Shown here one piece after another: positions 3,635 to 5,326 of a stretch of 30,561 nt of DNA. A program made the translations under genes and the position numbers. Positions within the stretch are counted from its first letter, which is position 1. The number at the start of each line of letters is the position of its first letter. Source of the DNA: an uncultured Pseudomonadales bacterium. Its GTDB lineage: Bacteria > Patescibacteriota > Microgenomatia > UBA1400 > MFAQ01. The notes under the pieces are model-generated. The model was not told the DNA's origin. It made no database searches and saw nothing but the letters and a program-made list of their open reading frames with translations. The DNA is taken from positions 1-30,561 of the forward strand of contig CAYQLI010000001.1 in the NCBI GenBank assembly GCA_964418355.1, read 5' to 3'.

Positions 3635-4738
3635 CTACTTTTTTGTTTTTCCAATCAGCGGAAGGGTAACCATGAAAGAAGTCAGGCCGTTTTCATCGGG
3701 ACTCTTAAAGGTTACTTGCCAACCAAAATTTTCACTGATGATTTTGACGATATAGAGTCCCAAACCGGAACCGGGGGTGTTCCGTTCGATAGCATTGGCG
3801 CCACGGTGCAGTTTGGTAAATATCAATGATTGGTCTTCGGTAGCAATTGCCGGCCCATTATTGCTGACGGAGAAGACATAATTATCATCGTATTTTTTCA
3901 GGAGGAGGCGAACCTCTCCATTGGTTGGATCACAGTAACAGGCAGCATTGGAAATTAGATTTTCAAAAACCTGCAACATAAGTGTCTTGGCCAAAGTCTT
4001 GTAGGGAAAGACTCCAGAATAATCTTTGTTAAATTCTACGCCTGGATTTTGGGCTTTAACTCGTTCGACGATACGTCCGATCTCATCTGCCAGATCAGTT
4101 TGTTCCTCTTTTTCGGCGGTGCGACCGACACGGGTGACAATAAGGAAGTCACTGATCAGATCTATCAGGGCATGATCATGTTTGGCAATCTCTTCGATAT
4201 TAGCAAGCTGCCTTTCTTTGAGTTCATCCTCTTTGATCAGAGTTTCGGTTAGCCAACGAATGGCTGTCAGCGGATTTCTTAGTTGATGTGCCAGCAGGGA
4301 CATAAATTCACGTTGGAGGATCTCTTTATCTTTTCTTTGGGTGATGTCCGGTTCGATGCTAACAAAAAACTTGACTGCGCCTTTTTCGTCAAGGATCGGA
4401 GAGATGATGATCTCCTGCCAATATTCCGTGCCATCTTTTTTGACGTTTTTTACCTCGCCCACATAGAGCGTTTTTTCATCTTTGATGGTATGCCACATTT
4501 TTTCATAGACATCATCAGTCATTCTTCCTCCCCAAAGATCGCCGGGATTTTTACCAATTACTTCCGCGACAGAATAACCTGTCTGTCTTTCGACCTGTTT
4601 GTTGGCATAAAGAATGTTCGCATTGGCGTCGGTAATGATCGCATGGCAGCCCAAAAGCTCCACTGCACGGCCTAGGGAAAAGATTTCTTTCTGGAGCTTA
4701 CTTAGTTCCTCAGCGGAAATATTATTTCGAATCGCCAC
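3635..4738 (-). CDS. Cytoplasmic PAS-domain sensor histidine kinase (PAS-HisKA-HATPase)
   Basis: PAS (ITDANANILYAN...TGYSVAEVIGKNP...DIT), H box AHQLRNPL, N box NLISNA, G2 box GSGLGL. Confidence 0.9.
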   Translation of the reverse strand: MAIRNNISAEELSKLQKEIFSLGRAVELLGCHAIITDANANILYANKQVERQTGYSVAEVIGKNPGDLWGGRMTDDVYEKMWHTIKDEKTLYVGEVKNVKKDGTEYWQEIIISPILDEKGAVKFFVSIEPDITQRKDKEILQREFMSLLAHQLRNPLTAIRWLTETLIKEDELKERQLANIEEIAKHDHALIDLISDFLIVTRVGRTAEKEEQTDLADEIGRIVERVKAQNPGVEFNKDYSGVFPYKTLAKTLMLQVFENLISNAACYCDPTNGEVRLLLKKYDDNYVFSVSNNGPAIATEDQSLIFTKLHRGANAIERNTPGSGLGLYIVKIISENFGWQVTFKSPDENGLTSFMVTLPLIGKTKK

Positions 4739-4758
4739 CTACACTCATTTAGACATTT

Positions 4759-4872
4759 TTAGTTAAGTTTTTCAACTAATCCTCCGAAAAAGGAAAGAGA
4801 CCTCATTGCTGAAGTCTCATTTTCCCGAAAACTTATTGCTAAGCTTTCTAACCTTATATTGCTATAAGGCTA
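4759..4872 (-). ncRNA. Candidate structured leader/ncRNA: three abutting GCAA-tetraloop hairpins plus a further stem
   Basis: Stems at 4849-4872, 4827-4848 and 4792-4826, each closing A-GCAA-T; TTAGTT/AACTAA stem at 4759-4779. Read by eye. Confidence 0.5.
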
Positions 4873-4903
4873 ACTTCTAGTAAATCACCCCAAGATACCG
4901 GTG

Positions 4904-5260
4904 TCAAGAGCGAATGATGGTGTGCTCGAACCACTTTTCCTGAAAAGCAGTCGCCGTCTCGATTTCTTCGTCAGTCACTGACTCACCTTCCGGGACAACC
5001 ACCAATTTGTCATCGTCATCTTCGGTTCTATGGACAATGGCAACGACAACTCCGGTAAATGTATCCAAGGGTTTGTCCACTTTGAGGATGTAAGCATCAA
5101 GTTCTTCACCATCAGGAGCGACAATGCCTTCAATATAGCCATAATTCACGCCATACTCAAAGCCCCACTTGGGGTGTTTCGTCCCCAGAGGGCGGTCGAT
5201 CTTTACCGTTACCGTTTTGTTTAATAAAGTCCTACTAAGCGCCAGCGATTTTGAGTCCAT
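4904..5260 (-). CDS. Short family-I inorganic pyrophosphatase
   Basis: YGVNYGYI, DGEELDAY, DDDKLVVV acidic motifs. Confidence 0.88.
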   Translation of the reverse strand: MDSKSLALSRTLLNKTVTVKIDRPLGTKHPKWGFEYGVNYGYIEGIVAPDGEELDAYILKVDKPLDTFTGVVVAIVHRTEDDDDKLVVVPEGESVTDEEIETATAFQEKWFEHTIIRS

Positions 5261-5326
5261 AGTTATTTTTTCTTGTTTCTAAAGTTTTCACCCGTATATT
5301 TTACCAGTATGTTAATATTGTTTCGA

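Follow-up and report, generated by a model that had tools for sequence, protein, structure and literature searches.

A probable stand-alone small RNA gene with three GNRA-capped hairpins points to an uncatalogued RNA family of Microgenomates-type CPR bacteria

The CsrB, CsrC and RsmX/Y/Z RNAs are stand-alone small RNAs of repeated hairpins that carry the loop motif GGA and bind CsrA or RsmA rather than mRNA. Another described system is RNA I of ColE1 (RF00106), which is about 100 nt long and has three stem-loops, its own promoter and its own terminator. Its 6-7-nt loops kiss the fully complementary RNA II that is made from the opposite plasmid strand. A short hairpin with a GNRA-type loop fold is also found in lambda boxB, the site of the N protein, which acts as a cis element in the nascent mRNA. 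The CPR/Patescibacteria account for a substantial part of bacterial diversity and are without the usual sRNA chaperones; to our knowledge almost nothing is known about RNA-based regulation in this group. Our literature search returned nothing on sRNAs of Collierbacteria, Levybacteria or CPR.

Here, we describe a locus in the window, that is, in the whole stretch of 30,561 nucleotides that was analysed. Judged from comparison with related genomes, the minus strand at positions 4907-4787 most probably carries an independent gene for a non-coding sRNA of about 85 nt, which represents at this locus an uncatalogued, class-level RNA family of CPR bacteria. With CsrB and the Rsm RNAs it would share the plan of a stand-alone sRNA of repeated hairpins with one short loop motif. 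However, the hairpins described here have GNRA caps that can be swapped for UUCG, and a CsrA gene (PF02599) was not found in the host assembly. A CsrB/Rsm-type sponge was rejected because the loops are GCAA, not GGA, and because this domain was not found. The RNA falls into the size class of ColE1 RNA I and likewise has three consecutive stem-loops with their own promoter and terminator. In contrast to RNA I, it has tetraloops, lies in a chromosomal gene, lacks a complementary partner and gives no Rfam match. An antisense RNA of the ColE1 type was therefore rejected as well, since the host assembly contains no complement of at least 13 nt and since its loops are tetraloops rather than the 6-7-nt kissing loops of that type. 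A short hairpin with a GNRA-type cap as a possible protein site recalls lambda boxB, a likeness that may serve as a lead only, and we know of no N-like protein here.

The host assembly (G000) comprises 1.05 Mb in 138 contigs with 48% G+C. It is scaffolded, with about 130 short N runs (mostly 10 N; 1696 N in total) in most contigs, and small genes or RNAs may therefore be interrupted. The features of the locus are collected in Table 1. The upstream pyrophosphatase-like ORF matches PF00719 only narrowly above the Pfam threshold, with 24.4 bits over profile positions 32-112 of 153, and looks truncated or diverged. The TTGACA box overlaps the TGA stop codon of this ORF (4906-4904), and the hairpin structure begins 31 nt past that stop. 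Downstream, the PAS kinase starts 48 nt after the RNA on the same strand.

Table 1. Coordinates of the small RNA gene and its flanks in the window, and of sibling genes beside the three-hairpin gene in related genomes (positions within the named locus)
Feature	Position	Strand	Remarks
Upstream ORF	4904-5260	minus	Short pyrophosphatase-like protein, 118 aa
-35 box of the sRNA promoter	4902-4907	minus	TTGACA; read from sequence
Extended -10	4879-4887	minus	TG (4887-4886), A, TTTACT (4884-4879); 17 nt after the -35 box
Predicted transcription start	A4871	minus	Predicted from spacing: 8 nt after the -10, usually after a pyrimidine
H1	4872-4863 / loop GCAA 4862-4859 / 4858-4849	minus	10 bp; UAGCCUUAUA-GCAA-UAUAAGGUUA
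H2	4848-4840 / loop GCAA 4839-4836 / 4835-4827	minus	9 bp; GAAAGCUUA-GCAA-UAAGUUUUC; abuts H1
Linker H2-H3	4819-4826	minus	GGGAAAAU; in this genus pairs with UUUCCU, lengthening H3
H3	4818-4810 / loop GCAA 4809-4806 / 4805-4797	minus	9 bp; GAGACUUCA-GCAA-UGAGGUCUC; GGGAAA/UUUCCU extension
Predicted intrinsic terminator	4787-4818	minus	H3 plus U-tract TTTCCTTTTT (4796-4787); terminator scan match 4818-4797 plus TTTCCTTTTT
Genome-specific spacer	4759-4786	minus	Outside the RNA family; between the terminator and the PAS kinase start (GTG 4738)
TTAGTTGA-AAAAC-TTAACTAA hairpin	4779-4759	minus	8 bp; genome-specific; between the sRNA terminator and the kinase start
Downstream ORF	3635-4738	minus	PAS-HisKA-HATPase kinase
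Sibling gene, L012	1631-1723	minus	
Sibling gene, L015	1198-1291		
Sibling genes, L020	882-973 and 1369-1463		
Sibling gene, L134	1501-1599		
Sibling gene, L135	1501-1597		
Sibling gene, L131	894-992	minus	

The original prediction had placed three directly abutting GCAA hairpins on the minus strand, and RNAfold returns exactly the helices H1, H2 and H3 at these places. Zero linkers had been claimed throughout; this holds between H1 and H2, whereas the linker GGGAAAAU separates H2 from H3. The minus strand of the 94-nt segment has a minimum free energy of -37.4 kcal/mol (z -7.27) and none of 200 shuffled sequences folds as well, while the plus strand of the same 94 nt reaches only -21.5 kcal/mol (z -2.70). 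Every helix contains a G-U pair, for which the opposite strand would have a C-A mismatch. The folding advantage of the minus strand fits such pairs, which are usable on one strand only, as had been proposed. GCAA hairpins with a stem of at least 8 bp occur nine times in the whole 1.05-Mb genome; three of these are H1-H3, and the remaining six look like ordinary terminators. The three-hairpin observation is real and far beyond chance.

A BLAST search against related genomes detected the locus in two assemblies from the same genus, G005 (84% identity) and G003 (82%). Both keep the promoter, the three hairpins and the U-tract, while the sequences before the -35 box and after the U-tract are unrelated to those of the host assembly. 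Between G003 and the window the differences in H2 are compensatory by eye (C-G to U-A, A-U to G-C) and the loops stay GNRA (GCAA, GAAA, GCGA). Two further stems of the earlier description, TCCT/AGGA and TTAGTTGA/TTAACTAA, are present in the host genome, but they lie beyond the terminator and are absent from both homologues. The hairpin formed by TTAGTTGA and TTAACTAA overlaps a weak promoter-like pair, TTGAAA/TAAAT.

Covariance models were built from four sequences (R1), 27 members (R2) and 38 members (R3). In the GTDB family of the host, represented by 44 genomes, R1 matches 33 at E<=0.1, including 27 at E<=1e-5. Several of these genomes carry more than one copy, often in tandem. The search for further copies, which had been suggested as a check, found the host assembly to be single copy, and a REP-like or genome-wide repeat was rejected on this ground. 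Beyond the home family, R2 and R3 detect clear members in about ten genomes from at least five other families of the class (f69, f73, f75, f88 and f105), all with the same promoter spacing and architecture. Within the class the distribution is patchy, with members in about 10 of the roughly 146 genomes sampled from families other than the home family. An essential housekeeping role is therefore unlikely, unless the models miss diverged copies. No convincing member was found with R2 and R3 in the other 18 families of the same order. The matches there (L124-L129) were rejected, as they are 3' ends of genes with GCAA-capped terminators and lack the promoter. About 142 genomes of other classes likewise gave no convincing member, with one weak match (E 2e-5).

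Named records were searched with a loose IUPAC pattern scan that returned mostly chance matches, and only CPR records were confirmed by the model: five from Candidatus Collierbacteria and three from Candidatus Levybacteria, at 64-94 bits. The best protein match of the window is a Collierbacteria genome as well, in agreement with the Collierbacteria members found by the model. A further locus (L136) scored as a member with 61.9 and 72.5 bits in two model searches. By these scores one covariance model joins the Collierbacteria-type and Levybacteria-type copies into one class-wide family, and the host range, as far as it is read from sequence, is that of Collierbacteria/Levybacteria (Microgenomates)-type CPR bacteria.

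With TTGACA, a spacing of 17 nt and TGnTTTACT, the upstream region has the hexamer distance of sigma-70-type promoters (16-18 nt). An exact TTGACA is present in 38 of 38 members, 27-30 nt before column 1 of the alignment. The original prediction had noted this box and an imperfect -10 upstream of the hairpins. The two homologues of the same genus have TGnTTTACT or TGnTTAACT, and other members carry a TAnnnT hexamer at the -10 position. At the other end, a terminator scan identified H3 and the following TTTCCTTTTT as a Rho-independent terminator, and members have on average 7.2 T in the 10 nt after the H3 stem. Thus, the hairpins lie exactly between a strong promoter and a terminator. A4871 (column 8 of the alignment) is A in 38 of 38 members; since it lies 8 nt after the -10, usually after a pyrimidine, it is probably the +1 nucleotide. 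We infer from these signals that the RNA of about 85 nt is transcribed, and where it starts and ends: the near-consensus sigma-70-type promoter would start transcription at or near A4871, the transcript would fold almost entirely into the three GNRA-capped helices and it would end at H3 and the U-tract. The small RNA gene that had been offered as one option thus has its own conserved promoter and terminator in addition to covariation in all three helices. The hairpins could instead belong to the 3' UTR of the upstream pyrophosphatase-like gene, as stabilising structures followed by its terminator. The structure does start 31 nt after the stop of this ORF, and H3 could also end that transcript. 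However, a perfect -35 box and an extended -10 stand at a fixed distance in all 38 members, whatever the upstream gene or its orientation, and we regard such an origin as very improbable.

Covariation in homologues had been named as a check on the hairpins, and it is extensive. In the 38-member alignment 90.9% of the cells are standard pairs, compared with 40-53% after the 3' partners have been slid along the alignment by 1-3 columns. Changes on both sides were found for 24 of the 28 base pairs, distributed as 8 of 10 in H1, 8 of 9 in H2 and 8 of 9 in H3. The covariation score is 0.68 versus at most 0.15 for the slid versions, and 0 of 500 column shuffles reach the observed values. These pair counts come from an alignment fitted to the structure of the model, a bias that favours this structure. 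However, RNAalifold finds the same three hairpins on its own in the 27-member alignment; the covariation term is -8.7 kcal/mol, and 22 pairs are compensated. This agreement, together with the slid controls, lessens the concern over the model-fitted alignment. The same data bear on the idea that the locus acts as DNA, whether as a repeat, as an operator array or as a hairpin used in recombination or transposition. In favour of this, each of the three stems is an imperfect palindrome at the DNA level. However, stem sequences change while pairing is kept, and a DNA operator would do the opposite. The G-U pairs work on one strand only, one of them being kept in 32 of 38 members, the loops are asymmetric and share one orientation, and the host assembly has a single copy. 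We therefore give this explanation hardly any credit, the least of those weighed here.

Within the RNA the invariant nucleotides are A4871, the spacer A together with the first two pairs of H2 (A4849-G4848-A4847 and U4828-C4827) and the loop bases. At the base of H2 the pair G4848-C4827 is kept in 38 of 38 members and A4847-U4828 in 36 of 38. The third-position wobble of H1, G4870-U4851, is the pair kept in 32 of 38, while the stems otherwise vary freely and the linker varies between 4 and 9 nt. The original prediction had read the shared A-GCAA-U loop as a multivalent protein-binding motif. This claim is weakened by three observations: GCAA is a default cap in this clade, where it also tops ordinary terminators; the loop-closing pairs covary between A-U and C-G; and the H1 loop is UUCG in two members. 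The tetraloops would then be mainly stability caps. The tip of H2, UAGCAAUA, is the only loop region that is widely common to members across orders, and in one genus H2 varies less than H1.

The position of the hairpins upstream of the PAS kinase had suggested a cis-regulatory motif or a protein-binding leader. A 5' leader of the PAS histidine kinase, be it a riboswitch, an attenuator or a protein-binding leader, would agree with the distance of 48 nt on the same strand and with a consensus scan that found no strong promoter between the RNA and the kinase start in the host genome. In addition, a lamin-tail-domain gene follows the RNA on the same strand in 10 loci of one related genus. However, H3 and the U-tract form a terminator in every member, and conservation does not extend to the alternative TCCT/AGGA pairing. 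Even within the genus the flanking genes vary: the flanks of G005 and G003 are unrelated to those of the window, and the gene downstream is a different one and convergent, which rules out a kinase leader there. No neighbour is conserved across the 38 members and no PAS kinase lies beside any other member. We thus consider the leader largely refuted by comparison and scarcely tenable. The general form of this reading was rejected too: a riboswitch or leader should keep the same class of downstream gene and a switching platform, and here the same-genus homologues have another, convergent gene downstream and do not keep the alternative stems. Read-through from the RNA gene into the PAS kinase may occur in the host genome. 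A search for a partner gene by synteny gave none; radA and a hypothetical gene lie upstream in some genera only, and these neighbours have no homologue in the host assembly. Comparison thus establishes the architecture of the gene, its conservation, its covariation and its independence of the neighbouring genes.

That no known RNA family would be recognised here has been borne out. When positions 4400-5300 were compared with Rfam 15 by cmscan at E<=10, all matches lay away from the hairpins and were at chance level, and seven homologous loci gave nothing at E<=0.1. 6S RNA was rejected because RF00013 does not match and because length and fold differ from its long helix of about 180 nt with a large central bubble. 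SRP (4.5S) RNA, which came into question since no such RNA was seen in these genomes, was rejected as well: the locus forms three hairpins and not one long hairpin, and neither RF00169, RF01854 nor the Ffh M domain PF02978 was detected in the host assembly and five relatives. The GTPase domain PF00448 (SRP54-type, of both Ffh and FtsY) was found neither in the host assembly nor in 80 genomes of the order and 60 of the phylum, and a search of the host ORFs for DT[AS]GR together with a P-loop gave nothing. SecY was found in 5 of 5 genomes checked. Since Ffh and FtsY are missing too, while SecY is found, the three-hairpin RNA is not SRP RNA. Loss of SRP has been published for Parcubacteria (Nelson & Stegen 2015, PMC4508563), and it appears to hold for Microgenomates-type genomes too.

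In related genomes the three-hairpin gene has tandem siblings (Table 1), each with its own TTGACA promoter. These siblings share the promoter type, the 5' module (UAG-H1-YAGAG) and the kind of terminator, while the middle part differs. One type lacks H2 and consists of H1, a conserved AGCUCUACAAUGCAGGUUGUAAGCU and the terminator; it was not found in the host assembly with up to 5 mismatches allowed. In another type the loops are larger, and there is a conserved CACUUUUCAUUAAGUG hairpin whose 6-nt loop is conserved too.

The siblings speak for a trans-acting base-pairing sRNA, in which one helix, for instance H2 with UAGCAAUA at its tip as the best-conserved part, would open or kiss a target mRNA and the targets of the siblings would differ. 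A shared 5' module and terminator with a differing H2 recall sRNA families with swapped seeds. The conserved 6-nt loop of the CACUUUUCAUUAAGUG type and the strictness of H2 relative to H1 within one genus point the same way. However, all loops of the copy in the window are tetraloops, and none of its unpaired stretches is long enough to serve as a seed. A perfect complement of at least 13 nt to the RNA is absent elsewhere in the host assembly, and 12-mers are at or below the shuffled expectation. Genes for Hfq, ProQ/FinO or CsrA (PF02599) were not found in this assembly. We rank base pairing second, as an improbable alternative, behind a protein-bound structural or decoy RNA, which is tentatively favoured precisely because an accessible seed, an antisense target and an Hfq, ProQ or CsrA gene were not found. 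Nearly all of the RNA is paired, and its stems covary freely. The few invariant nucleotides cluster at the H1/H2 junction and the rest is kept only as shape, which suggests a role with a protein or in a particle.

In the favoured, protein-bound reading the RNA might be a rigid, nuclease-resistant particle that is recognised by its shape by a putative protein and serves as a scaffold or decoy. Stacked on each other, H1 and H2 could form a single capped rod in which the 5' end lies at the nick. Contact points of the protein might be A4871, A4849-G4848-A4847, U4828-C4827 and the G-U wobble at the H1/H2 junction, as well as the H2 tip. It is conceivable, although on balance we doubt it, that this RNA forms the core of a ribonucleoprotein not yet described, or acts as a dedicated decoy for a protein, and that either is found in Microgenomates-type CPR only; the swappable H2 modules of the siblings would then give each RNA its own partner or signal.

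The three-hairpin sRNA family is undescribed and class-wide but patchy. It is a clean and well-supported family with a conserved strong promoter, compensatory change in three helices, a range across a class, siblings and no catalogue entry. Thus, it is well suited for inclusion in Rfam and for study by metatranscriptomics and pull-down. As a solid new RNA family it adds to a poorly explored phylum, while it does not yet answer the functional question.

A different type of hairpin RNA was seen at L144:1501-1592, with GC-rich hairpins, ACCAAG-like spacers and without a TTGACA promoter at the usual distance of the family. Inverted repeats of the form TTGTAA-N6-TTACAA or TGTAAT-N4-ATTACA lie between the -35 and -10 boxes at eight loci (L012, L013, L014, L031, L134, L135, L131 and L133). 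The promoter in the host genome is without such a palindrome. Being operator-like and placed inside the sibling promoters, these repeats suggest control by a repressor. Some genes recur near the sibling clusters, namely those for an ArsR-type HTH protein with a YHS domain, a DsbD-cupredoxin protein and DUF378.
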